Source of the DNA: Candidatus Harrisonbacteria bacterium
GTDB taxonomy: Bacteria > Patescibacteriota > Minisyncoccia > UBA6257 > 02-FULL-45-10c
Length of the DNA stretch: 64,000 bases
NCBI GenBank assembly: GCA_016214655.1
Contig: JACROC010000005.1
Span: 131,078-195,077, forward strand
Direction: 5' to 3'
In this document: one piece after another, positions 2,171 through 62,982 of the stretch
How the letters are laid out: each line of letters starts with the position of its first letter
How positions within the stretch are numbered: position 1 is the first letter of the stretch
The notes under the pieces: generated by a model
The model's database searches: none
What the model was told of the DNA's origin: nothing
Seen by the model: only the letters and a program-made list of their open reading frames with translations
Translations under genes and position numbers: made by a program

Positions 2171-3769
2171 TTATTGTCCCGAAAGAACCCACTTCTTCCA
2201 CACCGCCTCTGCAGGTTTATTACGGATACTCGCCCCCAAATCGTTATAACGCACTGGCGTATACTCTGGTCCCATAAAATCATCCCACGCAAAAAATTGG
2301 GTTACCACGCCGGCAAAAGAAGTTCGTCCGGCTAGCGCCTGGAAAAACGCTTCGTAAGCATCAGCTTGCTCTTGCCAATTACGTTTGTATCCAGCTTGTT
2401 CAACCTCGATATAGTCCGCAAATTCCATGCCAGATTTCCCACTCGTGGCACCGTCATAACTCCCTGCTCCAACCTTCAAAAATATCGGCTTTTTGTAAGA
2501 TGCTAGATTCGCCTCAACTTGATTTAAAGCCCCTATCCATGCCTGGCGCATTTCAAGTATTGAGGCGTTAGGTCGTACTCTTATCCCAATAGAATAATAG
2601 AGTCCATCTACTACATCTCTAAATTTGGGATTTCCATCAAAATAAATTTTCCCTTTGTATACCTCGCGAATTGCCGTGATAATTTCTAGCCACTTTGCAT
2701 CAGCATAATCATTCAGCGGATCAACGGTTGGCGGCCTATAATGAGGATTAAGGTCAAAAGCGTCTATGCCAGCATTTTCTGCTCTTTTGGCCCAATCTAC
2801 CAAAACATTTTTCAACTGCCCGAAATACCTATCAAGCCATTCTTTCGTTTTTGACTCATATCTACCAAAATCTGTCCCCGCTCGGTTTTCTGCCGTGTTT
2901 CCTCCAGATCCCCTCGCCGCAAATGGATTAGGAGTAATATTAATATATTTTGTATAGTCAGCCCCCATATTGTAATAAAGCGTAGTTTTAAGTCCGTATT
3001 TTCGAGCCGTTTGCGCAATCATTTCCATTTCATCCGCGGTAATTGCGCCGTCACGCCCATATTTATGCTTCAACTGACCCCAAATAAATGTAGGCATTGG
3101 CGGATCTTCCTGAACAACAAAATTATCTTTATCGCCAAGCATTTCAATAAAACTATAAACACCGATTTCTTTACCACCCAAATCACGAATTCGCGCCATC
3201 GCAGAATCTAAATTCTTTCGAGTATCTTCAAAAAATTGAAAATTATAATTAATTGACCAGGTATCGTACATTTCAACACTGGGGAATAAAGCTTTTGAAA
3301 TAAACGGTATTTTCAGATCGCTCCAAGCTGACACATAATCATATATAGTTTTTTCAAACCATTTTACTTTGAGCTGTTTTTCTTCTGAAACAGAATTTTC
3401 ATTTTTTCGTAAATAGCGATAAACAAGATCTTCGCCAGTCGTAACTGGAACTGGAACTTCAAAAGTCGTACTATTTACTCGCTTCATTTCCGCCGGTTCT
3501 CTACCTTTAATTACTAGAAAGATTTTATCGGCAAGAGGAGTATTATACGGCACCGTTGTCCAAAAACTTAGCTTTGCCGGCTTCCCGACTGGCGCCTTAT
3601 CAAGCTTAGAAAACTCACAGACTTGCCGCGCCTGGGGGATTGGTAAAACCCCGCAGCTTGGCGGCCATACGTCAAAACGGATAGCCAAATACCCGAAAAA
3701 TATAAATATCAAAACCGGGCTAAGAAGAATCAGTGCCCAGCTTAATAAATTTAATAAGATTTTTTTCAT
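2171..3769 (-). CDS. Secreted or membrane-anchored protein, putative TIM-barrel glycoside-hydrolase-like. Likely start is MKKILL at 3769, not the upstream Met at 3847.
   Basis: N-terminal signal anchor and a long soluble domain. The start codon overlaps the stop of the upstream DoxX gene as ATGA, which supports the start at 3769. Confidence 0.35.
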   Translation of the reverse strand: MKKILLNLLSWALILLSPVLIFIFFGYLAIRFDVWPPSCGVLPIPQARQVCEFSKLDKAPVGKPAKLSFWTTVPYNTPLADKIFLVIKGREPAEMKRVNSTTFEVPVPVTTGEDLVYRYLRKNENSVSEEKQLKVKWFEKTIYDYVSAWSDLKIPFISKALFPSVEMYDTWSINYNFQFFEDTRKNLDSAMARIRDLGGKEIGVYSFIEMLGDKDNFVVQEDPPMPTFIWGQLKHKYGRDGAITADEMEMIAQTARKYGLKTTLYYNMGADYTKYINITPNPFAARGSGGNTAENRAGTDFGRYESKTKEWLDRYFGQLKNVLVDWAKRAENAGIDAFDLNPHYRPPTVDPLNDYADAKWLEIITAIREVYKGKIYFDGNPKFRDVVDGLYYSIGIRVRPNASILEMRQAWIGALNQVEANLASYKKPIFLKVGAGSYDGATSGKSGMEFADYIEVEQAGYKRNWQEQADAYEAFFQALAGRTSFAGVVTQFFAWDDFMGPEYTPVRYNDLGASIRNKPAEAVWKKWVLSGQ

Positions 3770-4349: not shown

Positions 4350-6596
4350 TTATAATCGATGCCTACGGAGAAGAATAGCGTTGACGGCTACAATAACCGT
4401 TGAAAGCGACATAAAAACTGCGGAAATCGCCGGCTGAAGCAGAATACCTTTTGATACCAAAACTCCGGCCGCCAATGGCAAAGCTATAAGATTATAACCG
4501 GTAGCCCAAAAAAGATTTTGGATCATTTTATTATAGGTCAGACGGGAAAGTTTAATAATTTTTACGATATCCCGGGGGTCATTTCTCACTAGAATAATCC
4601 CTGCCGATTCAATCGCCACATTAGTACCGGCGCCGATTGCTATTCCCAAATCCGCCTGAGTAAGAGCCGGGGCATCATTAATGCCGTCGCCAACCATAGC
4701 AACTTTTAAAGCACGCGATTGAAGCCGCTTAACTCGATCAACCTTATCTTCCGGAAGCACCCTGGCAAAATATTCGTCTATCTGCAATTCATTGGCCACC
4801 CAATGCGCAACTTCTTCGGAATCACCGGTAAGCATTGCCGTTCTTACTCCCAAATTTTTTAATTCTTTGACTGCTTCTTTGGATTCTTCCCGGATTATAT
4901 CCGCCAGCACAATAACGCCAGCCGGCTGATCTCCGATTATTACATAATTAATCGTTTTGCCTTGCCGGGCTAAATCCAAAATCTGAGATTTCAATTCCTC
5001 CGGAATTTCCGCTTTAAACTCTTTTAAAATCTTTTCTCCGCCAACCGCCACTGTAATACTCTTCACCACCCCCCTGACGCCCTTACCCGGCAATCTCTCA
5101 AAATTTTCTACCGGCAATAATTCCACCCCCAATCTCTCAGCTTCTTTGACTATCGCCTTACTGGCAAAATGCTCAGACCGATTATCCACTGAAGCGGCGA
5201 ATTGCAGCAACTGGTATCCGGCAGCCGGAATATCCGTCCTCCTGGGCATAGTAAATTGCGACAAAGCAAATTTAAATATAGGAAACTGCGGATTGGGAAT
5301 TATTTTATCTATGCCATACTCGCCCCTGGTAAGAGTTCCGGTTTTATCAAAAAGCACGACATCAATCTTACGGGCGGCTTCCAGCGCCAGTCTTTGCCGC
5401 ACCAACAATCCATTTTGCGCGGATTTTGTGGTAGATATGGAAGCCACCAGCGGAACAGCGAGGCCCAAAGCATGCGGACAGGCGATTACCAGCACGGCAA
5501 CAAAACGCTCTAAGGCGAAAATCGCTCCCGCCCCGACGAAAATCCAATACCAAAAAGAGGATAGTCCGCTGACAATCGCTATAATAGTCAGATAGAATGC
5601 GGCGCGGTCGGATAAAATTTGAATACGCGATTTAGACGCTTGCGCTTCTTCCACCAATCTCATAACTCCGGATAAAAATGTATTTTCTCCTATTTTAGTT
5701 ATCCGTACCTTGAGGCTGCCGTCGCCATTGATGGTTCCGGCAATTACTTCGTCATTTTTTTTCTTTGCAACCGGCTTGGATTCACCGGTAACCATGGCTT
5801 CATTAATGTCCGAACTTCCATCAATTATCATCCCATCCGCCGGAATTTTTCCGCCAGGCCTGACCAAAACTACATTATCAACCCTCAATTCACTAATAGG
5901 AACGATCTTGGTTTTATCGTTCTTCATTAATATCTCCGCGGTATCCGGCAATAATTTAGAAAGTTCTTTAAGAGCGCGCTGCGCTCCCTGCACTGACCGC
6001 ATTTCTATCCAATGACCCAAAAGCATTATGGTAATCAAGCTTGTCAGCTCCCAGAACAAAGTGCTTGGCTCACCGGTAATGGTACCTAGCCGAATTAAAA
6101 GAATTTGTAAAACACTGTAAATATACGCCGCCCAGATTGCAATGCCAATCAAGGTCATCATCCCGGGAAGGCGTCCCTTAACCTCCAGCCATGCCCCGCG
6201 CGTAAATATCCAGCCGCCATAAAAAAATACAATTGTACTCAGGGCAAGCTGAATATAATCAGAACCGAGAAATGCCGGAGCTTGCCAACCCAAAAATCTT
6301 GCAGGAAGTTCCGAATAAAGCACTACCGGAATAGTCAGGGCTAAGCTAATCCAGAATTTCCGCAAAAACATCTGAGTACTGTGCCCAGCATGTTTGTCCG
6401 CAATAGATTCAGCATCGACGGATTTCCCTTCTTTTCTCTCTGCGGGTACCAGCTTCATTCCGCACTCCGGGCAAAGACCCGGTTTTTGCCGCTGAATCTC
6501 CGGATGCATCGGGCAGGTATAAATTATCCCCTCAGACACCTCTTTATCTTCATTCGCCATCTGATTATTTTTATTTTCCATATTGCAACAATCCAT
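4350..6596 (-). CDS. copB: Heavy-metal (copper) translocating P1B-type ATPase, CopB-like: CPH transmembrane motif and an N-terminal heavy-metal-binding domain (YTCPMHPE...CPECGMKL).
   Basis: DKTGTLT phosphorylation motif, CPH motif in TM6, GDGINDAP hinge and the TGES actuator-like region, plus 8 TM helices. Confidence 0.9.
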   Translation of the reverse strand: MDCCNMENKNNQMANEDKEVSEGIIYTCPMHPEIQRQKPGLCPECGMKLVPAERKEGKSVDAESIADKHAGHSTQMFLRKFWISLALTIPVVLYSELPARFLGWQAPAFLGSDYIQLALSTIVFFYGGWIFTRGAWLEVKGRLPGMMTLIGIAIWAAYIYSVLQILLIRLGTITGEPSTLFWELTSLITIMLLGHWIEMRSVQGAQRALKELSKLLPDTAEILMKNDKTKIVPISELRVDNVVLVRPGGKIPADGMIIDGSSDINEAMVTGESKPVAKKKNDEVIAGTINGDGSLKVRITKIGENTFLSGVMRLVEEAQASKSRIQILSDRAAFYLTIIAIVSGLSSFWYWIFVGAGAIFALERFVAVLVIACPHALGLAVPLVASISTTKSAQNGLLVRQRLALEAARKIDVVLFDKTGTLTRGEYGIDKIIPNPQFPIFKFALSQFTMPRRTDIPAAGYQLLQFAASVDNRSEHFASKAIVKEAERLGVELLPVENFERLPGKGVRGVVKSITVAVGGEKILKEFKAEIPEELKSQILDLARQGKTINYVIIGDQPAGVIVLADIIREESKEAVKELKNLGVRTAMLTGDSEEVAHWVANELQIDEYFARVLPEDKVDRVKRLQSRALKVAMVGDGINDAPALTQADLGIAIGAGTNVAIESAGIILVRNDPRDIVKIIKLSRLTYNKMIQNLFWATGYNLIALPLAAGVLVSKGILLQPAISAVFMSLSTVIVAVNAILLRRHRL

Positions 6597-36027: not shown

Positions 36028-36247
36028 AAAAATGCTATTTGCCTGTCCCGCACCAAAATTGAGCACTGAATCACTCTATGGAGTCATAATGGTGACCTCC
36101 AAAATGCTATTTGTATTTAGTGAGTGCTCTCTTATGACTCCAGAGAGCAATCCAATTTTTGGTGCGGGATATTTAGTGAGTGCTCTCCTACCACTCAAAA
36201 ATAAGTATAAAGTATAAGGTAAAAAGTGAAAAGAGGGTTAAAAACCA

Positions 36248-36272
36248 AAAGCCCCTTGCGGGGCTTTTGGCT
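36248..36272. terminator. Bidirectional intrinsic terminator (AAAAGCCCCTTGCGGGGCTTTTGG).
   Basis: Perfect GC hairpin flanked by A and T runs. Confidence 0.5.
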
Positions 36273-36459
36273 ACAAATAGCGGAGCATTCCTTAGTCGAT
36301 ATCATCGCTGAGGAACGGACTTCTGCTTTCGCCGAAGCCAAGACTTCTACTTGCGTAGAAACCTCACACTCACTATAAATAGTATAGCATATACATATTT
36401 AAAAAGCAATAGTTTTAAGAAGCAATAATTTATGTATCATATATAAAAACGCCTCTTAA

Positions 36460-38426: not shown

Positions 38427-39165
38427 TCACATTCACAGTCACCTCTTGACTGCCCGATTCAATACTCGGGGCCTTGGCTGCCGCAAAAGCGCCTCCGCGG
38501 CCAAATGTCTCATAAACAGGTATTGGGGGCGGATACCCGCCGGCAGACTCGGAAAAAGTCACTACCCGGCCTATCCGGACCCGATTTTGTTTTGCCATCT
38601 CTTTAGCTTTGATAGATGCTTTTTCAAAAGCTTCTTCCCTGGCTACTTTCAGATATTTATCCGGCTCATCAATATTAAAGTTCAGCGATCCAATCTGGTT
38701 AATACCCAATTCCGGCAAGGAGCCTAAAATTTTACCAATTTTAGAAAAATTGCGTATCTTCACCAAAACGGTTTGCGTTAAAGTATAGCCGCTGATAAAA
38801 GTTTTCTTCGCCTTTTCATCATATTCATAACGCGGAAACAAATTATATCCGACAGTCTTTACATCTTTATCCGCAACGCCTTGTTCTTTTATAAATTGAA
38901 TTGTGGTATTCATTGTTTTATTATTCTCATCCGCAATTTTCTCAGGATCTGCTCCCTCGCTTACTACCGAAAATGTAAAAGTTGTTACATCCGGAGAAAC
39001 CGTGGTTTTACCTTCCGCGCTGACTATTAAAGTCCGTGACGGATATAAAGATCCCTGATATTTATAAAGCGTTTTCAAAGAAGACAGCCCTAATAAAATT
39101 AATACTAATAAAGACGCGTTGACCAACCACCAAAACCAATTTTTTAATTTCTCTGGATTAAACAT
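38404..39165 (-). CDS. SIMPL/DUF541-domain secreted protein.
   Basis: N-terminal anchor and an alternating beta pattern resembling SIMPL-family proteins. Confidence 0.4.
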   Translation of the reverse strand: MFNPEKLKNWFWWLVNASLLVLILLGLSSLKTLYKYQGSLYPSRTLIVSAEGKTTVSPDVTTFTFSVVSEGADPEKIADENNKTMNTTIQFIKEQGVADKDVKTVGYNLFPRYEYDEKAKKTFISGYTLTQTVLVKIRNFSKIGKILGSLPELGINQIGSLNFNIDEPDKYLKVAREEAFEKASIKAKEMAKQNRVRIGRVVTFSESAGGYPPPIPVYETFGRGGAFAAAKAPSIESGSQEVTVNVSVTYEIR

Positions 39166-39877
39166 AAGAAATCATTTTTTTTACTTCTTCTTTTTTCAGA
39201 CTGGCGCCGCCGACAAGGGCGCCGTCCACCTCCTTATATTTTAAGTAGTCTCTTAGATTTCGGGAATCAACTGAACCGCCGTACAATATTTTAGGGTTTA
39301 GGGTATAGGGTTTAGCGTTCAGGATCTTTCTGATATATTTTATAGTTTCTAATGCTGATTCTGGGGTTTCGGGATTGCCAGTGCCGATTGCCCAAACAGG
39401 TTCATAAGCTACGATAAAAGGGTTTAGGGTATAGGGTCTAGGGTATAGAAAGAGGCCAATTTTTAATTGGCGCTCGATTACTGCTTCTTTTTTGCCAGCA
39501 TTTTTTTCTTCAATAGTTTCGCCAACGCAAAGAACCGGGATCAGTTTATTCTCGGCGGCGGCTTTCATTTTTTTAGCTACCATTTCATCTGTTTCATCAA
39601 ACTTATGCCGGCGCTCTGAATGGCCAATGATAACGTATTTCACCCTAACGCTTTTAAGTTCTTTTGCTGAAACTTCTCCGGTAAAAGCGCCTTTTTCTTC
39701 GTAAAAAAGATCTTGGGCTCCCAGCCGAGATTTTTTTAAAACTTTTCCTACTTCTTCCAAAAAAGGAAATGGCGGCGCCACTACGACATTTTTATAATCA
39801 CTGGCTTTTGCCAAAGAAAGCGCCTCTTTGAGAGTGGCTGGATTCATTTTCCAGTTTAAAATCAGCAGCTTTGTCAT
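39158..39877 (-). CDS. tpiA: Triosephosphate isomerase.
   Basis: VIIGHSERR and AYEPVWAIGTG signatures, plus YGGSV. Confidence 0.9.
   Translation of the reverse strand: MTKLLILNWKMNPATLKEALSLAKASDYKNVVVAPPFPFLEEVGKVLKKSRLGAQDLFYEEKGAFTGEVSAKELKSVRVKYVIIGHSERRHKFDETDEMVAKKMKAAAENKLIPVLCVGETIEEKNAGKKEAVIERQLKIGLFLYPRPYTLNPFIVAYEPVWAIGTGNPETPESALETIKYIRKILNAKPYTLNPKILYGGSVDSRNLRDYLKYKEVDGALVGGASLKKEEVKKMISYV
39291..39314. repeat. G-tract repeat copy 1 (TAGGGTTTAGGGTATAGGGTTTAG) inside tpiA. It contains the 18-nt core that encodes PYTLNP on the minus strand.
   Basis: The identical 18-mer also occurs at 39426-39443. Confidence 0.6.
39422..39451. repeat. G-tract repeat copy 2 (GGGTTTAGGGTATAGGGTCTAGGGTATAG) inside tpiA, a canonical G3-N4-G3-N4-G3-N4-G3 motif on the plus (template) strand.
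   Basis: Four GGG runs with 4-nt spacers. Shares AGGGTATAGGGT with the rpsD-rpoA intergenic repeat. Confidence 0.6.
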
Positions 39878-39926: not shown

Positions 39927-41001
39927 TTAATTTCGTAAAGAAAACCAAACCTCATTTAAAAGTCTCTCGCGTAACTCATAAGTGTTAGCATGAGACAAAG
40001 CGCCAAGATAAGATTGTAATGATTGTTCAAGTGTTATTTTAGTAATATATCCTAGGTTATATTCTTTGATGCGTTTCCGTATTTTTGTAAATATGCGATG
40101 TTTTGTCTTGATTCGTATCAACCGATACTTTGGAAATATCACATGGCCAAGAAAATCAATGCCTTGATGTAACTTACGAATTATGATTTTCTTTGGATGT
40201 AGCTCCAAAGCAAGTTTCGTCTCAAGAAACTCATTGATCTGCGGCAAAAATTTTTCTAAATAATCCTGATTTTTCGAAACAATAACAAAATCATCGGTAT
40301 AGCGAATATAGTATTTTACTTTTAACCTATGTTTCATAAACTGATCAAATTCGTTCATATAGATATTGGCGAAAAGCTGCGAAGTCAAATTCCCTATCGG
40401 AATACCTTGCGCGGCGATTCTACTCTCTCTCTCTCTCTCTCTCTCGGGCAAACGTCACGCTTTTATAACTTTCAATAATAGATTCCAGAAGCCAAATGGT
40501 GTCACTATCTTTGATACGCTTTTTGATGATGGAAAGCAGGGTTACGTGATCAACGCTGTCAAAAAACTTCCTAATATCGCATTTCAATATAAAGCAAGGA
40601 TTGGCGCCATTCTTACTGACCTTTCTCACTGCTCTTTCCAAAGCTTCCACGCCTCTATGAGTTCCGTAACCGATGCGACAGGAAAACGAGGTAGAAATAA
40701 AGGTCGATTCAAAAATCGGATTGATAATCGAGAAAATAGCATGGTGCAGAACACGATCCCGAACTACCGCTTTATGAATGTGCCGTTGTTTCGGATCCTG
40801 TATATAAAAACCGGTATATGGACCGTGTTGGTAAGTTTTATTTTTCAATTCTCGTTGAAGCTGAAAAATATTTTCCTCCAGATTCCATTCAAACCGAAGC
40901 GCATCAGATTTTTTCCGCTTATCGATTTTAAAAGCCTCCCAGGCTGAAAAAAGATTCTCCGATGAAATAATTTTTGTAAACAGATTTTTATAAATTTTCA
41001 T
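39927..41001 (-). CDS. DGR-type reverse transcriptase in two ORFs: 40420-41001 (RT motifs 1-3) and 39927-40451 (motifs 4-7). The break is a frameshift inside an (AG)11 tract. One extra AG unit, or two fewer, restores a single frame.
   Basis: YACRIGYGTH, LKCDIRKFFDSVDH, the GIPIGNLTSQ hallmark of DGR RTs, and YTDDFV (YxDD). The N-terminal ORF ends ...FARERERERE* and the second ORF begins (M)PERERERESRIAAQGIPIGNLTSQ. Confidence 0.85.
40423..40445. repeat. Perfect dinucleotide microsatellite (CT)11C on the plus strand, which is (AG)11 in the RT sense. It is the site of the RT frameshift.
   Basis: Read directly; this is the only long dinucleotide tract seen in the window. Confidence 0.9.
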
Positions 41002-41015
41002 AAATAATTACCACT

Positions 41016-41366
41016 ATGGATGACTTCGATATACCAATCTTTAAAAAATCATATGAGCTCTATAAGACCTTTTACGGATATCGGCTCATGGTCTCCAAAC
41101 AAGATCGCTATACCCTGTGGCAGCGCTGTGAAAATACTATTTTGGATCTCTTGGAAAACATCTTATTGGCCAGCCAATTATCCAAAGAAGCTAAATTGCC
41201 GGCATTGGAAAAATCCAGCCTGAAATTGAATCTCCTTCGGATTCTCCTCAGGCTTTCCAAAGAAACCAAGGCAATCGACAATAAAAAATATCTTTACTTG
41301 GAAGAAATAATAGATGAAATAGGCAGGATGCTCGGCGGCTGGATCAAATCCACCAAAGATCGCTAA
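41016..41366 (+). CDS. avd: Accessory variability determinant (Avd), a four-helix-bundle DGR component.
   Basis: C-terminal EEIIDEIGRMLGGWIKSTKDR closely parallels Bordetella phage bAvd (...AEVGRILGSWIARVNRK). Size is 116 aa. Confidence 0.8.
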   Translation: MDDFDIPIFKKSYELYKTFYGYRLMVSKQDRYTLWQRCENTILDLLENILLASQLSKEAKLPALEKSSLKLNLLRILLRLSKETKAIDNKKYLYLEEIIDEIGRMLGGWIKSTKDR

Positions 41367-41416
41367 ACAAAACGCTCTCCAATTATTGGAGAGCGTTTTT
41401 AGCGATGGGAGAAATG

Positions 41417-41535
41417 ACTTCCGAGAGGCACCGAGACCAATGTTGTTCCACCTGTTGTCATCCCAGTTGTTGTTGACGTTCAGGCCATTGCCGTCGAAGT
41501 TGCCCACATTGACGCGGTTGCCGTCCGACGTGACA
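41417..41535 (-). other. DGR template repeat (TR).
   Basis: 118-bp match to the 3' end of the target gene (41952-42070) with 22 mismatches, 21 of them at adenines of the TR sense strand. The TR sense translation is Asn-rich (NRVNVGNFDGNGLNVNNNWDDNRWNN). Confidence 0.85.
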
Positions 41536-41820
41536 AATTTGCTCGCCCCCGTCTTTGGCACTGAAAGTCGAGGTTTGCTGTCGCCTAAGGCGACTTATAT
41601 CCTCTTCTTTCTGAATTTTATTTAGGAGCACTCCGATGTTCATCGGAGACCTCCGCTAGAAGCAAGCAAGAAGTTCTGTTCTCCATCTTTATTCACACGC
41701 TATCGCACTCCGTAGAGATGCGACACTCTGGTGACGTCTCAAAGATGAGACATCTTGCGGGATTAAACCGTGGCCTAATCTACATTAGCAAGATATTTAT
41801 ATTGTAATAAATTTGTAGAA

Positions 41821-41860
41821 ATAAAAAAAGAAGCCCCCGGCGCAAAAATCGCGCCGGAGG
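41821..41860 (-). terminator. Rho-independent terminator downstream of the DGR target gene (CCGGCGC-GATTTTTG-GCGCCGG, then a T-run).
   Basis: Hairpin and U-tract on the minus strand. Confidence 0.5.
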
Positions 41861-41946
41861 CTCAAGAGTTCAAGAGAGACAATCCCTCCAGAACTCAAAC
41901 TTCATCCTTCGACTTCGCTCAAGATGACCCTGAGCTTGTCGAAGGG

Positions 41947-42774
41947 TCAGAACTTCCGAGAGGCACCGAGACCAAGGGAGCCCCCCCTGCCGTCATCCCA
42001 GCCGCGGAAGACGAACAGGCCATCGCCGTCGAAGAAGCCCACAACGACGCGGTAGCCGTCCGACGTGACATCCGTGGTTCGCGCATACCTCGTCGGGTTC
42101 AGATAGATGCCGTTTTTCCGGTAATAGAGAATGTCCTTGAGGACTTCCTCTACTGCGGTCGGCACCTCGTACCCTTGAGGCAGCATAGCCACTTGGTCCT
42201 GGTAGGTCTTAGACTCGGAGTTCGGAACGATCTCCAGAGGCATCAGATACCACCGGAACTTCGCGGTCAGCTTGGTTGCCCAGGTTTGCTGAGAATACCA
42301 CGAACTGGGCGCGTAGCTTGCGAACTTTGGCTGGCCGTTTTGCGGATGCAGCTCCTGCAAGTGGAGGATGGTGAGCGGTTTCCCGTTCACGTTCTCGAGC
42401 CCCAGAAACGCGAAGTGCGTTTCTTTGACTGTCTTGCCTTTGACGAGCGGGCAAGGGGCGTTGAGAACATCCTCTCCCCACGGGAACTCAGCCACTTCTC
42501 GGAGCTGCTTCTTGGTGAACTTCACGCTGTACAGCGCGGTCCACTCTTCCACTCCGAAGAAGTTCTTGCCCTGAATGGCGCGAACCACCTGGTGATTCGC
42601 CGAACCCGACGCTTTGCCGCGAAGCATGAACTCGGCTACGCGTTTCGCGTAATCCGGCTCAGCCCGCAAGCGAGCGAGGTGCTCGGTTGAGACTCCGTGA
42701 TCCTGGAGCGCTTTCAAGGTCGCTCCGACTTCTCCGTAACTGGCTTTCCAGAGACCGCCTGGGTTTGTGCTCAT
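41947..42774 (-). CDS. DGR target (variable) protein with a C-terminal variable region (...YRVVVGFFDGDGLFVFRGWDDGRGGSLGLGASRKF).
   Basis: The C-terminal 40 codons correspond to TR-encoded Asn positions. RBS AGGAGGTAA. The GC-rich 3' end (GGTCTCGGTGCCTCTCGGAAG) is IMH-like, and an 8-bp inverted repeat (41906-13 / 41938-45) abuts the stop. Confidence 0.8.
   Translation of the reverse strand: MSTNPGGLWKASYGEVGATLKALQDHGVSTEHLARLRAEPDYAKRVAEFMLRGKASGSANHQVVRAIQGKNFFGVEEWTALYSVKFTKKQLREVAEFPWGEDVLNAPCPLVKGKTVKETHFAFLGLENVNGKPLTILHLQELHPQNGQPKFASYAPSSWYSQQTWATKLTAKFRWYLMPLEIVPNSESKTYQDQVAMLPQGYEVPTAVEEVLKDILYYRKNGIYLNPTRYARTTDVTSDGYRVVVGFFDGDGLFVFRGWDDGRGGSLGLGASRKF
41952..42070 (-). other. DGR variable repeat (VR) at the 3' end of the target CDS.
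   Basis: See TR above. All but one difference map to TR adenines. Confidence 0.85.
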
Positions 42775-55157: not shown

Positions 55158-55759
55158 CTAAGAGTTGCGGGAGAAGACCTGGAAGCCGTCGTACCACACG
55201 TACGGATTCTCAACCGAGATGGCATCGACGCTCCAGCCAGCGCTGCGCCAGCGGACGCTCACCGCCCAGAGAACTCCTTTGGCATCGCGGACATAGAAGA
55301 TGTTCGCGTAGCCATTGGTAAGGAGTTTTCCGGACTCGCCTTTGGGCTGCTTTTTGAGAAGCTCCCAGATGCTGGCTAGGGTGGTCTCCGCCTTATCTCC
55401 CAGTTCTGCCAGGATCGGCGCCTCCGGAGAGGCCTTCTTGAGCTTACTGATGCGGAGCTCGGTTTCGGCTTGCGGCTCCTCCACTTTAGCGAGGAAGTGC
55501 TGCCGGAAGTTGTCTCCGAGGTAGGCGATCTTTACCTTTTTGTTGGTCGTAGTGAGGTGGTCGCTGGCGACGAACCTGCCAGCAGACATAAGCCTAAACG
55601 CGCTAACGAATTCCAAGAACAGCGAGTCCCAAGTCTTCTCCTTGCGGAGAAACTTCTTGAACTCTCTCAGCCACTGCGCGCCTTCTTCGCTCACCAGCTT
55701 CGTTAAGAAGTCTGTGAACGGTCAACTACGTCTTGGAGCGTCAACCGAGTGTCTTCCAT
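55158..55759 (-). pseudogene. Hypothetical gene with a disrupted N-terminus. An ATG at 55759 with RBS AAGGAG opens an 18-codon frame that stops, and the main 178-aa ORF (55158-55694) is in another frame. It shares a promoter/leader module with the DGR target gene.
   Basis: Shared blocks: TTGACAAAATAGC, and GATTGATGTACCTT(A/G)AAACTGAA before the RBS. An inverted repeat TAGGAACC...GGTTCCTA abuts the stop. Confidence 0.35.
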
Positions 55760-56024
55760 GACAGTCAGTCTCCTTGCTTCAGTTTTAAGGTACATCAATC
55801 AAGCCTAAGCCTGATCAAAATAATAATAGCACGTTTTTAGCTATTTTGTCAAATCTGAAACTAGCCCTAAACCCTACAAACGTACGGCAAAAAATAGAGT
55901 AAGATACCCAAGAAAATTACCATTACTATGAGAAAAAAAGCCTTATCCATTGCGGAGGACGCAGTACGTAGAACGTAGCCCGTAGAATAAATAAACCTAT
56001 GAACTACTGCCTATGACCCGCGGA

Positions 56025-56870
56025 CTAAATAGCTTCCAACTGAAGCCGTTTATTTACATTATAACTCTTTATCAAAAATAATCTATGCAGAACCGACTTT
56101 AACGCATCTAAATTTTTAACCGGATCCTGGCGCAGTTTTAAGATTAACGATTCAAAAAATTTATCCAATAATTCCGGCTTTTCTTTCTGTTCTTCCACCA
56201 GTTCCTTAATAAGATCAGATTTTGCTTTACCGTTCATTCTTAAAAAATTATTTACATAACCTTCGGCTTGTTTCATAAGATCATCGCTTAATAAGCGCAC
56301 TGCTCTCCCTGGCCTCCCCAGAGATAATTTCACAATTTTTTGGTCATCCGATGACCCAAAATTATCACTCTCAATATTAAGGTCATCCGATGACCTTATA
56401 TTTAGACATTTATATATCTCTTCATCGCTAAGGCGCCCAAAATAGATCTTCTGCATACGAGACAATAATGGCAGTAATAAATTATCCAATTGATTTACTA
56501 TTAAAATAATCAGAGAATGCTCCGGCGGCTCTTCGGTAATTTTCAAAATAGCATTCTGCGCCTGCGGAGTCAGATTTTCCGCGTCATTGATTACCACTAA
56601 ACGCTTTGAAGAAATATTTGGTTTCTGCCATAAAAAATTTTTAATCTCCCGCATGGCATCTATCCCACTTGAATCCGCCAAAATTAAAGCGTCGCTTAAC
56701 GGTCTAGCCGACAAATTTAATTCCCCGCTTTCCAATAAATTAGCCAAATGTTTTGCAAAATAGAACTTCCCCACCTCCGGCTCGCCAAAAAAAATATAGC
56801 CATGAGCTAACTTTCCGGATTTAACCAGCGTCTTAAAATCTTTAACTAAGTGTTCGTGGCCAACAAACAT
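56025..56870 (-). CDS. holB: DNA polymerase III delta-prime subunit-like AAA+ protein.
   Basis: HGYIFFGEPEVGKFYFAKHLANLL (degenerate Walker A, typical of delta-prime) and overall clamp-loader layout. Confidence 0.55.
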   Translation of the reverse strand: MFVGHEHLVKDFKTLVKSGKLAHGYIFFGEPEVGKFYFAKHLANLLESGELNLSARPLSDALILADSSGIDAMREIKNFLWQKPNISSKRLVVINDAENLTPQAQNAILKITEEPPEHSLIILIVNQLDNLLLPLLSRMQKIYFGRLSDEEIYKCLNIRSSDDLNIESDNFGSSDDQKIVKLSLGRPGRAVRLLSDDLMKQAEGYVNNFLRMNGKAKSDLIKELVEEQKEKPELLDKFFESLILKLRQDPVKNLDALKSVLHRLFLIKSYNVNKRLQLEAI

Positions 56871-57880
56871 TATCGTTTATTAAGCAAAGTCCTTTTATAT
56901 ACATCTAAATGATTCAAGATAATGCCGGCGCCTTTGGCTACGCAGAAGATCGGTTCTTCGGCTATATAAGTTTCTACGCCGGTCATGCGCTTAAAAAATT
57001 CATCAATATAGCGGAGCTGAGCGCCGCCGCCGGATACGATAATCCCCTTTTCCATAATATCCGCCACCAATTCCGGAGGAGTTTCGTTAAACACATTTTT
57101 AACCGATCCGGCAATATCAATAAGATGCTGATTCAAGGCATCGGCGACCTCGTTGGAATTGACAATAATATCCTTCGGCAATCCGGAAACCATGTCCCGG
57201 CCCCGTATCTGCAATTCCAGCTTGTCTTTAGAGGGAAGCGCGGCGCCAACTTCAATTTTAATCAGCTCGGCAGTTTGTTCACCTATGTGAAGCGCGTATT
57301 TCTTTTTAATATAATCTGTAATAGCTTGGTCAAATTTATTACCGGCCACCCGCAAACTGGACCAAGATACAATACCACCAAGAGAAATAACCGCAACTTC
57401 CGATGTGCCCCCGCCGATGTTAATAATCATATTTCCGGAAGAATTATTAATAGGAATACCAGCTCCAAGCGCAGCCAGCAGCGGTTCTTTAACGATATAA
57501 GCCTCTTTAGCGCCTGCTTCTTTAGCGGCATTCATAATTGCCCGCCGTTCAGTCGGCGTAATGCCCGCCGGAGCGGAAATAACCACATCCGGCCTGACTA
57601 AATTAAATCGCCCGGTGGCTTTAGCAATGAAATATTTAAGCATTGCTTTGGTAATGTAATAATCAGCAATCACGCCGTCCTTAAGCGGCCGATAAGCGGC
57701 AATGTCGCCTGGAGTTTTACCAACCATATCTTTGGCTTCTCGGCCGACAGCTAAAACACCGTTATCAGGCAAACTAAGCGCAACAATAGTCGGCTCATTG
57801 ATAATAAATCCTTTCCCCGGAACAAATACGATTGTATTTGCCGTACCAAGGTCTATGCCTATTTTTCTAGTAAACATCAA
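56870..57880 (-). CDS. mreB: Second MreB/Mbl-like actin homolog.
   Basis: IGIDLGTANTIVFV, NIGGGTSEVAV motifs. Confidence 0.85.
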   Translation of the reverse strand: MMFTRKIGIDLGTANTIVFVPGKGFIINEPTIVALSLPDNGVLAVGREAKDMVGKTPGDIAAYRPLKDGVIADYYITKAMLKYFIAKATGRFNLVRPDVVISAPAGITPTERRAIMNAAKEAGAKEAYIVKEPLLAALGAGIPINNSSGNMIINIGGGTSEVAVISLGGIVSWSSLRVAGNKFDQAITDYIKKKYALHIGEQTAELIKIEVGAALPSKDKLELQIRGRDMVSGLPKDIIVNSNEVADALNQHLIDIAGSVKNVFNETPPELVADIMEKGIIVSGGGAQLRYIDEFFKRMTGVETYIAEEPIFCVAKGAGIILNHLDVYKRTLLNKR

Positions 57881-57942
57881 TTTAGTGGACTAGCCACTAG
57901 CGATTAGCCACTAGTATTTTTCTAGTCGCTAATCACTAAACA

Positions 57943-59202
57943 CTAGTCGCTTCTTATAATGTCCGCTCCTAACTCTCTTAATCGTTCATCAAATTTTTCA
58001 TACCCCCTGTCGATCTGTTCAATGCTGCCAATCGCGCTCTGTCCTTTGGCAACTAAAGCGGCTATTACCAAAGTAGCGCCTGCCCTTAGATCTAAACTTT
58101 GAATTTCCGCGCCATGAAGCACTGTCGGGCCGTTAATTATCGCGCGATGCGGATCTAAAATTACCGCGTCTGCTCCCATTTTTCGGAGCTCATCAATGTA
58201 TTTTAATCTACCCTCATACATTATGTCAAAAATTAATGATGATCCCTTAGCCTGAGTAGCTAAAACCCCAAAAGGCGCTTGCAAATCCGTCGGCAAACCA
58301 GGATAAGGCAAGGTCTGAATTTTAGCCGCATGCAATCCAGATCTCATGCCATCAATCCCCAATACACTGCCCCTCAAATTAAAAACAACCCCGAATTCTT
58401 TGAGTTTGCGCAACGGCAATTCCAGATGACTTTCCTCAACGCCAACAATATTAATATTACTTCTGGTTGCCGAAGCCAGAACCGCAAGCGTCCCAGCTTC
58501 AATGGGATCATTAATAATGGTGTGTTCTATTGCGCCGCTTAATCCCTTACCGCTGTTAACTTTAAAAGTGTGGCTTTTGTCGCCGGCAACCGTAACTCCT
58601 AATTTAGCCAAAAAATCAATCAAATCCAGAACATGGGGCTCAATTGCCGCCAAAGCAATAGCGAAGGGGTGCGCTTTTGCCAGCATTAATAAATTTTCCG
58701 TAGCCGTAACGCTAAACTCTTTTAAACAAACCCGGTCATTTTTAAAATTTTTCAAAAAGATAGTATGTATTCCGGATCCATCATCAAATTCCACTATCGC
58801 ACCCAAATCCCGGAAAGCTTCCAAGTGTGTATCTATAGGACGACTCCCAATCTTACATCCTCCAGGAGTTACAAAACTCACCTTTCCAAACCTGGCTAAC
58901 AATGGACCCACTAATAAAATGGATGACCTTATTTGGCACATTAGGTTTTGATCCAGTTTTTCGGGATTAATATCGCTATTATCGATTTCTATACTGTGTC
59001 CCGAAAGCCATTTTTGTCTTGAACCGATGCTCTTTAATATTTCCAGAATAACCAGGACGTCACCTATCCGTGGAATATTGTGAAGGATGCAAGTTTGATC
59101 AGTTAATAAAGTAGCGGCGATAATCGGGGTAGCGGAATTCTTACAGCCGCCGACCCGAATATCCCCATCCAAAGCTTTCCCGCCATTGATAATAAACTTC
59201 AT
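57943..59202 (-). CDS. murA: UDP-N-acetylglucosamine 1-carboxyvinyltransferase.
   Basis: N-terminal KFIINGGKALDGDIRVGGCKNSA, including the catalytic Cys (C-K-N) loop. Confidence 0.9.
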   Translation of the reverse strand: MKFIINGGKALDGDIRVGGCKNSATPIIAATLLTDQTCILHNIPRIGDVLVILEILKSIGSRQKWLSGHSIEIDNSDINPEKLDQNLMCQIRSSILLVGPLLARFGKVSFVTPGGCKIGSRPIDTHLEAFRDLGAIVEFDDGSGIHTIFLKNFKNDRVCLKEFSVTATENLLMLAKAHPFAIALAAIEPHVLDLIDFLAKLGVTVAGDKSHTFKVNSGKGLSGAIEHTIINDPIEAGTLAVLASATRSNINIVGVEESHLELPLRKLKEFGVVFNLRGSVLGIDGMRSGLHAAKIQTLPYPGLPTDLQAPFGVLATQAKGSSLIFDIMYEGRLKYIDELRKMGADAVILDPHRAIINGPTVLHGAEIQSLDLRAGATLVIAALVAKGQSAIGSIEQIDRGYEKFDERLRELGADIIRSD

Positions 59203-62896: not shown

Positions 62897-62968
62897 TTTA
62901 GTTAGGGGTTAGGGGTTAGGGGTTAGGGGTTAGAAATTTACTAAACCCTCAACCCTATACCCTCGACC
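62891..62968. repeat. Telomere-like G-tract repeat with an inverted copy. (TTAGGGG)x4 sits at 62891-62920, and the C-rich counterpart (AAACCCTCAACCCTATACCCTCGACCCTCA) at 62937-62968. G-quadruplex motifs occur on both strands and the two halves can form a long imperfect hairpin.
   Basis: Read directly. It lies between the rpsD stop and the rpoA ATG; the G-run starts 2 nt after the ATG on the plus strand. Confidence 0.7.
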
Positions 62969-62982
62969 CTCAATTTATTAAT

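Follow-up and report, generated by a model that had tools for sequence, protein, structure and literature searches.

Why does an essential glycolytic enzyme carry the same 18 nucleotides twice, in frame, in two different loops? The question is raised by tpiA, the triose-phosphate isomerase gene in a 64,000-nucleotide stretch of a Candidatus Harrisonbacteria genome (positions 131,078 to 195,077 of contig JACROC010000005.1, assembly GCA_016214655.1; hereafter the window, whose numbering is used throughout). Its product, TpiA, is 100% identical to a triose-phosphate isomerase with domain PF00121 from a Ca. Harrisonbacteria metagenome-assembled genome of the Candidate Phyla Radiation (CPR, or Patescibacteria). 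The two copies are segments of two tandem arrays of four to five heptanucleotide units of the (TAGGGTW)n type, here called S1 and S2, and arrays built from other heptamers occupy the same two loops in related genomes. We consider these arrays to be, probably, a coding-sequence variant of the heptanucleotide repeats already known from bacteria.

Two tandem arrays in the loops of TpiA

On the plus strand of the window, AGGGTTTAGGGTATAGGG occurs exactly twice, at 39293-39310 and 39419-39436; with up to three mismatches allowed, the search returned nine matches, compared to 0.04 expected from shuffled sequence. Both exact copies lie inside tpiA and are translated as PYTLNP, one on either side of the AYEPVWAIGTG segment. 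A first-pass annotation of this DNA had recorded the identical pair and its flanking translation, and the open reading frame (ORF) agrees with it on both counts, although it placed the copies (39297-39314 and 39426-39443) 4-7 nt too far along and 129 bp apart, where the true distance is 126 bp. It had also described the 18-mer as a discrete element. Instead, Tandem Repeats Finder (TRF) shows each copy to be a segment of a 7-bp tandem array (Table 1), belonging to a period-specific class with many unrelated units. The sliding period-7 score is 18/21 at S1 and at S2. Both are direct repeats, with no palindrome or terminal inverted repeat in their sequences and no target-site duplications at either array, and their RNAs fold at 0 and -0.6 kcal/mol, no better than shuffled sequences.

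Table 1. Heptanucleotide arrays in the window, their host gene, and the units found at the tpiA loops of relatives
Feature	Position	Strand	Units or content	Basis
tpiA, triose-phosphate isomerase (239 aa), host of S1 and S2	39158-39877	minus		ORF, PF00121, AlphaFold model
Array S1 in tpiA	39419-39448	plus	4.3 copies (GGGTTTA GGGTATA GGGTCTA GGGTATA)	TRF period 7
Array S2 in tpiA	39290-39323	plus	4.9 copies (TTTAGGG TTTAGGG TATAGGG TTTAGCG TTCAGG)	TRF period 7
Perfect array, rpsD-rpoA spacer	62901-62933	plus	(GTTAGGG)x4.7	TRF 100% matches, G4Hunter 2.56
Inverted partner array, rpsD-rpoA spacer	62941-62973	minus	GAGGGTC GAGGGTA TAGGGTT GAGGGTT TAG; contains GGGTATAGGGT	TRF (ACCCTNN)x4
Hairpin of two inverted arrays, spacer between an EPSP_synthase-family (PF00275) gene and mreB	57880-57943	minus	TAGYGAY / CTAGTGG	TRF 57889-57914
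Hairpin of inverted arrays, downstream of a DNA polymerase III delta'-like gene	55950-56030	minus	NNCRTAG / CTACGNN	TRF 55966-55987
Intergenic heptamer array	36203-36233	plus	AAGTATA-type	TRF, period-7 scan
L001 S2			ACTTTTG ACTTTCC ACTTTCG (ACTTTNN)	
L005 S2			WGTYAAA x6	
L004 S1			TCATNRG x4	
L023 S1			KAAAATT x4	
L205 and L206 S1			NNGTCAA x4	
L207 S1			CTAAATC x5	
L211 S1			CTAAACG-type	
L210 S2			CAATTAC x2	

Read on the minus strand, S1 encodes LYPRPYTLNP (residues 144-153), the α5-β6 loop directly before AYEPVW, and S2 encodes LNAKPYTLNP (residues 186-195), the end of α6 and the α6-β7 loop directly before LYGGS. In an AlphaFold model built from 52 homologs (mean predicted local distance difference test score, pLDDT, 93.2), the S1 loop lies between helix 130-141 and strand 155-158, and S2 forms the tail of helix 172-187 and the loop ahead of strand 196-199. 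The αβ loops of the standard TIM barrel are on the face opposite the active site; by this topology, the S1 and S2 loops are on the non-catalytic face. From GET to AYEP the protein spans 38 residues, compared to a median of 37 in 75 distant TpiAs, and from GTG to YGGS it spans 34, where the median is again 37. The arrays therefore replace loop sequence without any net insertion. The proposal that a short element had been inserted does not hold, as loop lengths are equal to or below those of distant TpiAs; of the two outcomes that the first-pass annotation expected an ortholog alignment to separate, lineage-specific insertion or replacement, the comparison supports replacement.

Shared rare codons

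The arrays are written in codons that are rare in this genome: CTA supplies 3% of Leu, CCC 11% of Pro and AAC 20% of Asn codons. The coding-strand 30-mer of S2, CTAAACGCTAAACCCTATACCCTAAACCCT, is identical in the window, in L002 (75% amino acid identity) and in L023 (50%), and nearly identical in L075, a Saccharibacteria gene (53%). At S2 residues conserved with the window, codons are identical at 9/10 positions in L002 and 7/8 in L004, compared to 54-55% elsewhere in the gene. The exact 18-mer had led to L023 and L075, a biased choice that partly guarantees their codon identity, and two further relatives were picked by peptide alone to avoid it: L210 (57% identity, peptide at S1) and L211 (54%, peptide at S2). 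Both read exactly CCC TAT ACC CTA AAC CCT. Since these two were chosen by peptide and nevertheless carry identical codons, the peptide follows from the DNA. Orthologs encoding the same loop peptides with unrelated codons, which would indicate conservation at the protein level, were not found; the orthologs share the same rare codons. From these comparisons, it appears to be the DNA repeat, not selection on the protein, that dictates the sequence of the two loops.

The reading frame imposes its own constraint. On the G-rich strand, TAG recurs every 7 nt and places a stop in all three frames, so the array can be coding only with the C-rich strand as sense, and this is the orientation of the public 18-mer arrays inside long ORFs among the matches listed. 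On the C-rich strand, all three frames of a pure (CCCTAAA)n array contain TAA; CCCTATA/CCCTAAA/CCCTAAA has a single stop-free register, which reads PYTLNPK (checked by translation). Once an array of this family lies in a gene, the identity of both the 18-mer and its peptide is therefore partly forced.

Turnover of units among TpiA relatives

To follow the two loops through the family, we compared a close set, comprising the window and 14 relatives with tpiA DNA at 50% identity or more, to a distant set of 81 tpiA genes from a metagenome scan (40-47% identity), which served as outgroup control. In the close set, 9 of the 15 genes have a period-7 score of at least 16/21 at S1, and 8 have one at S2. 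Scores this high are absent from the rest of the gene, and at other periods they are absent throughout. Among the 81 distant genes, this score is attained once at S1 and once elsewhere. The units at the two loops differ from relative to relative (Table 1). L004 has more units at S2 than the window does, and the arrays have decayed in some lineages, for example at S1 of L002 and S2 of L003.

Among 120 TpiA relatives, a PYTLNP-type peptide is present at S1 only in 8, at S2 only in 8 and at both loops in 2; no other part of the protein has one. With the S1 and S2 loops left out of a neighbour-joining tree, Fitch parsimony requires 8 and 9 changes for 10 positive tips each, compared to shuffled means of 9.8 and 9.7; the presence of the peptide is scattered over the tree. 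The S2 loop of two TpiA relatives, P0039 and P0064, holds long extra segments, such as PTLSVGVPTPLGVEIVRPDAFGRGPDPFGRRDCS in P0039 with its internal PDxFGR repeat, and therefore this loop also takes larger repetitive insertions in some lineages.

Within clusters of TpiAs at 90% identity, array length is stable, truncated alleles excepted. P0128 (13-kb contig) matches the L005 gene at 98.6% identity as far as ...SLYPKPY, continues with YRLRTGLGNRHRQS and stops. Frame 2 of L005 translates as YRLRTCLGNRHRQS followed by a stop, and the P0128 tail corresponds to the frame that results from an exact deletion of 14 nt, or two units. P0166, from a 21-kb contig, terminates at ...GNRKSEI, within an S1 peptide that repeats every 7 residues (IGNRKSE); judged by its protein sequence, this stop would fit the loss of one unit. 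These putative OFF alleles number one or two (P0128, P0166) among approximately 90 cluster members. Array replacement is suggested by P0130, whose S1 loop reads KLPITNYQL and would fit (AATTACC)n if back-translated; P0005, in the same 90% cluster, has a CCCTAWA array, and the difference points to recent replacement. In P0078 and P0176, S1 and S2 share ASGYTLNPIII over 11 residues. This identity extends beyond the limits of the array and therefore points to conversion between the two loops. Gene conversion, one of the two routes that the first-pass annotation had offered, is thus plausible between the loops, as another Harrisonbacteria TpiA carries this peptide at both.

A repeat class defined by its period

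Arrays were scanned for by counting matches between positions i and i+p over 21 positions (threshold 17) at periods 4-12, with Markov-2 simulations for comparison. The window, from which the counts for this genome come, yields five period-7 arrays and, at periods 4-6 and 8-12, no array at all; the simulations give approximately zero. A strict tandem scorer (+1/-4) recovers only the perfect array at 62.9 kb and misses the imperfect ones. The tpiA loci of related CPR genomes hold 14 period-7 arrays and none at any other period; loci of other phyla with the 18-mer, among the matches listed, hold 264, versus 0-12 at other periods. The excess is weaker in 460 kb around the distant tpiA genes (13 period-7 arrays versus 0-4). 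The heptamer units are very diverse across these sets, with dozens of unrelated sequences, and the class is therefore defined by period 7 and not by any one sequence. Repeats of this period-7-specific class are carried by the present CPR genome and its relatives, and by many further uncultivated bacteria.

Spacer arrays mostly form inverted pairs, and in the window these fold into hairpins with periodic internal loops. Folding energies are -29.7 kcal/mol (z-score -3.35) for the pair between rpsD and rpoA, which were identified by Pfam, -34.1 kcal/mol (z-score -6.91) for the hairpin upstream of mreB, and -22.1 kcal/mol (z-score -2.17) for the one downstream of the DNA polymerase III delta'-like gene.

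Occurrence of the (TAGGGTW)n family in other phyla

The exact 18-mer is present in at least 119 stretches of GTDB species-representative genomes, compared to approximately 17 by chance (our own estimate for a random 18-mer in 596 Gb, both strands). The matches listed come from CPR groups, Acidobacteria, Planctomycetes, Elusimicrobia, Methylomirabilota, Gammaproteobacteria, Omnitrophica and others, and all of them are within arrays. The 128 arrays listed have a mode of four G-tract units (three units in 32, four in 57 and five in 26), and 36 of the 128 have an inverted C-tract partner no more than 90 nt away. Approximately 20 arrays, also among the matches listed, are found inside long ORFs as KPYTLNP. 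Seven of the hosts are confirmed by Pfam domains that match both before and after the array: TypA/BipA, a Mur ligase, SecA, the Pol I 5'-3' exonuclease, asparagine synthase, LigA and UvrA. A scan of viral contigs for the 18-mer gave one match only and no phage link. The first-pass annotation had seen that the tpiA copies share their core with the rpsD-rpoA repeat, and GGGTATAGGGT is indeed found again at 62952-62962 (minus strand); its idea of a dispersed family able to sit in coding sequence is likewise supported by the arrays in that spacer and in unrelated proteins.

In addition to its KPYTLNP array, the UvrA of L115 contains the 23-residue peptide VSVNRLAQPVSSNVRRKTANETG twice, approximately 370 residues apart, which suggests a second kind of repeat element inserted in-frame twice in one gene.

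Origin of the arrays

With this periodicity, position, codon identity and turnover among relatives, and with one allele that fits a whole-unit deletion, the tpiA arrays are probably a coding-sequence variant of the heptanucleotide repeats known from bacteria; slippage and conversion would have shaped them, and the loops would tolerate them. The loop sequence would be set as slipped strands add or remove whole units, as each array is homogenised and as one array converts another, and selection would filter only for frame, loop length and the absence of stops. In loops on the non-catalytic face, almost any hydrophilic, proline-rich peptide should be tolerated, and the encoded peptide would accordingly be neutral.

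Several observations weigh against this explanation. Slippage predicts changes in length, yet the loops are of normal length and the arrays are constant within 90% clusters. Slippage alone explains neither the preference for 7 nt nor the replacement of units at the same position. Near-identical arrays in TpiAs that are only 50-57% identical would need repeated conversion or re-acquisition, or purifying selection at the nucleic acid level. The four-unit peak of the (TAGGGTW)n arrays listed (57 versus 32 and 26) hints at family-wide selection for the capacity to form a G-quadruplex (G4). Lastly, the truncations in P0128 and P0166, known from protein sequence only, could be sequencing or assembly artefacts.

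Alternative explanations

The arrays could instead be copies of a mobile or actively copied (TAGGGTW)n cassette, repeatedly installed at preferred sites, some of them in-frame in genes, by ectopic gene conversion, template switching or an enzyme, analogous to the Rickettsia palindromic elements or the small dispersed repeats of cyanobacteria. This would account for the presence of the exact 18-mer in at least 119 stretches, drawn from many phyla, always within arrays, and for its in-frame position in unrelated housekeeping proteins, as well as for its patchy, tree-independent presence at two fixed loops with identical codons. The 11 residues shared by S1 and S2 in P0078 and the difference between P0130 and P0005 at S1 are also in keeping with it. 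However, the tpiA arrays have neither terminal inverted repeats nor target-site duplications, add no net length and are unstructured on their own, and a single element is hard to reconcile with a class that is defined by its period and has dozens of unrelated units. Viral contigs gave one match only, and no associated gene was identified; the neighbouring reverse transcriptase belongs to a diversity-generating retroelement (DGR) with its own pair of template repeat (TR) and variable repeat (VR) and is absent from the tpiA loci of relatives. We regard such a cassette as possible but unlikely.

A second alternative is that selection keeps the arrays for their effect on nucleic acids, as a G4 on the template strand, an i-motif on the C-rich strand or a site for protein binding in heptamer register, any of which might modulate transcription or replication of tpiA. 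A G4 regular expression finds a canonical G3-N4-G3-N4-G3-N4-G3 motif at 39420-39443 (G4Hunter 1.40) on the plus strand, the template strand of tpiA, as the first-pass annotation had noted; d(GGGTTTAGGGTATAGGGTCTAGGG) is the candidate oligonucleotide for a K+-dependent quadruplex. This stretch is one of only four G4-motif sites in the 64 kb, three of which are heptamer arrays, and a second four-unit G3 run is found at 62905-62929 in the rpsD-rpoA array. The mode of four units across genomes matches both the four-unit preference of the GGGNATC/GGGGAYT heptamers and their G4 formation in vitro (PMC4692102), and the conservation of the array at the DNA level exceeds what the protein needs. S1, however, holds the only canonical G4 motif in tpiA. 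S2 has three intact G3 tracts with GCG in place of the fourth, and the number is three in L002 and L023 as well as in the window; relatives carry heptamer arrays without G-tracts in the same two loops. Presence is scattered over the tree, the array has decayed in some lineages (L002 S1, L003 S2), and its orientation is imposed by stop codons rather than chosen. In addition, no regulatory role was identified for such repeats in PMC4692102. Judged from the motifs, G4 pausing of tpiA transcription might occur at S1 only and is unlikely to be a general function of the arrays; that selection of this kind maintains them at all seems to us unlikely.

Of the G4Hunter blocks in the window with an absolute score of 1.2 or more, almost all are C-rich on the plus strand, that is, G-rich on the strand with most genes. 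S1 and the 62.9-kb array are two of the three plus-strand G-rich exceptions.

It is also conceivable that a currently unrecognised process specific to period 7, such as a dedicated polymerase, recombinase or repair pathway or a protein binding in heptamer register, writes and maintains the arrays. Shared by CPR and other uncultivated phyla, it would overwrite defined sites again and again, the two tpiA loops among them, and whole-unit frameshifts could serve as a reversible tpiA switch. The reason for considering it is that ordinary slippage does not fully account for identical rare-codon arrays in TpiAs of 50-57% identity, their scatter, the replacement of units at fixed positions, the four-unit mode and the frameshifts. 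We consider it rather improbable.

Selection on the protein is very improbable. A clade of TpiAs in which PYTLNP is a favoured loop peptide, with the DNA repeat as by-product, would be consistent with its recurrence at two loops in 18 of 120 relatives and with the suitability of proline-rich peptides for loops; but every occurrence uses the same rare codons, even in relatives at 54-57% identity, many relatives fill these loops with wholly different peptides that heptamers likewise encode, and the same DNA array is found in spacers and in unrelated proteins. The codon data essentially refute this explanation. An assembly or sequencing artefact, which a metagenome-assembled genome and the proneness of tandem repeats to mis-assembly might bring to mind, is extremely improbable, as the arrays are at the same codon positions in independent assemblies (ENA, JGI, NCBI, Logan) and keep the reading frame of a well-folded enzyme. 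We also considered reading the array as a HutP-like UAG-N4 protein-binding site or a Rho utilization (rut) site; other units at the same loops lack those features.

Other elements of the window

A complete DGR is located directly upstream of tpiA (39927-42774, minus strand). Its reverse transcriptase is encoded by two ORFs, 40420-41001 and 39927-40451 (RVT_1, IGNLTSQ motif), its TR is at 41417-41535, and its VR, at 41952-42070, forms the 3' end of the target gene (41947-42774). The TR and VR differ by 22 mismatches, 21 of them at TR adenines. The reverse transcriptase is split into two overlapping ORFs by a (CT)11.5 tract at 40423-40445, read RERERERE; the split could reflect a frameshift, a possible on/off switch or a sequencing error. 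A link between the tpiA arrays and this reverse transcriptase or the variable region was rejected: the TR/VR pair acts in a different gene, and neither the enzyme nor the rest of the cassette is present at the tpiA loci of the relatives examined.

In the mRNA, the (CUAACCC)x4 array of the rpsD-rpoA spacer (window 62897-62933) abuts the rpoA start codon (62896), reading …CUAACUAAAAUG, and no Shine-Dalgarno sequence can be recognised there. The spacer upstream of mreB has heptamer arrays both in the window and in L002, with unrelated units; as at the tpiA loops, the site is shared but the unit is not. The mreB gene of L002 has (ATTAGAA)n on its upstream side (3395-3433) and the reverse-complementary (TTTCTAA)n on its downstream side (4485-4516), approximately 1 kb apart. 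A mini-array of two units of the (TAGGGTW)n family, GGGTTTAGGGC, is on the minus strand at 55864-55874, just upstream of a TTGACA-N17-TATTAT promoter-like site for the gene at 55158-55694.

Adjoining the AAGTATA array, downstream of a promoter-like region, is a GC-rich, structured-looking stretch (36240-36400, minus strand) whose end is formed by a strong terminator-like hairpin, AAAAGCCCCGCAAGGGGCUUUUGG. Possibly the stretch is a small RNA not yet annotated; a search of the window against Rfam matched no family, here or elsewhere.

Relation to known repeats

Bacterial heptanucleotide repeats have been known since 1990; in 2007 they proved to be the commonest class of long simple sequence repeats (SSRs), and they are regarded as mainly non-coding. 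The tpiA arrays fit the definition of heptanucleotide long SSRs, resembling the short tandemly repeated repetitive (STRR) sequences, and they are not insertions of the type of miniature inverted-repeat transposable elements or Rickettsia palindromic elements. Mrazek 2007, as quoted in PMC4679880 and PMC4692102, found the heptanucleotide to be the most abundant long-SSR class in most bacterial genomes, with polymerase slippage proposed as its source, and PMC4692102 cites the cyanobacterial STRR heptanucleotide repeats of Calothrix PCC 7601. The tpiA arrays share with these repeats their head-to-tail 7-nt units, short arrays, period-7 excess, multiplicity of units, sporadic phylogeny and proposed slippage. 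Long SSRs and STRRs, however, are known mainly from large cultured genomes and non-coding DNA, and SSR units in coding sequence are usually multiples of three, whereas the arrays described here belong to a small CPR genome and lie in the reading frame of an essential enzyme, where members of one clade have arrays at the same two loops and the unit types turn over.

The GGGAATC and GGGGA(C/T)T repeats of Xanthomonas and Nostoc (Rehm et al. 2015, PMC4692102) similarly have one tract of three to four G per unit and a mode of four units. They also form direct arrays and hairpin-capable inverted arrays, and they are found between co-directional genes near ORF ends, as in the rpsD-rpoA spacer. Here the unit is TAGGGTW, one of the two tpiA arrays lacks the fourth G-tract, G4 formation is predicted by sequence scores, and the tpiA arrays are internal to an ORF, while the Xanthomonas and Nostoc repeats are under-represented in ORFs.

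Stops in three frames, with coding possible in the reverse orientation only, are likewise a property of the TAACTGA repeats of marine Beggiatoaceae, cyanobacteria and Bacteroidetes (MacGregor 2015, PMC4679880). These are present in 2-6 copies directly upstream of start codons with no obvious ribosome-binding site, an arrangement comparable to that at the rpoA start, and, like (TAGGGTW)n, they have an unexplained distribution across phyla. Their unit is a different one, and in ORFs they are found mostly at the termini or in hypothetical proteins, not in the internal loops of an enzyme.

Rickettsia palindromic elements (PMC10969869) are also repetitive DNA translated inside conserved housekeeping proteins at tolerant positions, but they are palindromes of approximately 150 bp that add a peptide, whereas the tpiA arrays are tandem repeats of approximately 30 bp with no palindrome and no added length. 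As in phase-variable contingency loci, a unit that is not a multiple of three lies in an ORF, a change in unit number shifts the frame, and one truncated allele (P0128) fits a two-unit deletion. Those loci, however, are surface or virulence genes; the host here is a core glycolytic gene, its arrays are short and imperfect, and the OFF alleles are putative.

A literature search found no paper joining heptamer repeats with CPR/Patescibacteria. To our knowledge, and as far as the literature searched shows, three observations lack a previous description: in-frame arrays that recur, with changing units, in two particular loops of an essential enzyme throughout a CPR clade; a cross-phylum (TAGGGTW)n family that is translated as KPYTLNP in many housekeeping proteins; and whole-unit frameshift alleles of tpiA.

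Implications

Orthologous sites with different units could serve as a natural test system for why period 7 is special. If our explanation is correct, the similarity of loops among array-bearing proteins would be homoplastic and driven by DNA, which matters for annotation and phylogenetics, and changes of 7-nt units would be a built-in source of frameshifts in essential genes. More broadly, mutational repeat dynamics, not selection on residues, would shape parts of conserved proteins in streamlined genomes, with repeats setting two loops of a core enzyme across a CPR clade as well as loops or linkers of TypA, SecA, LigA, UvrA and others.

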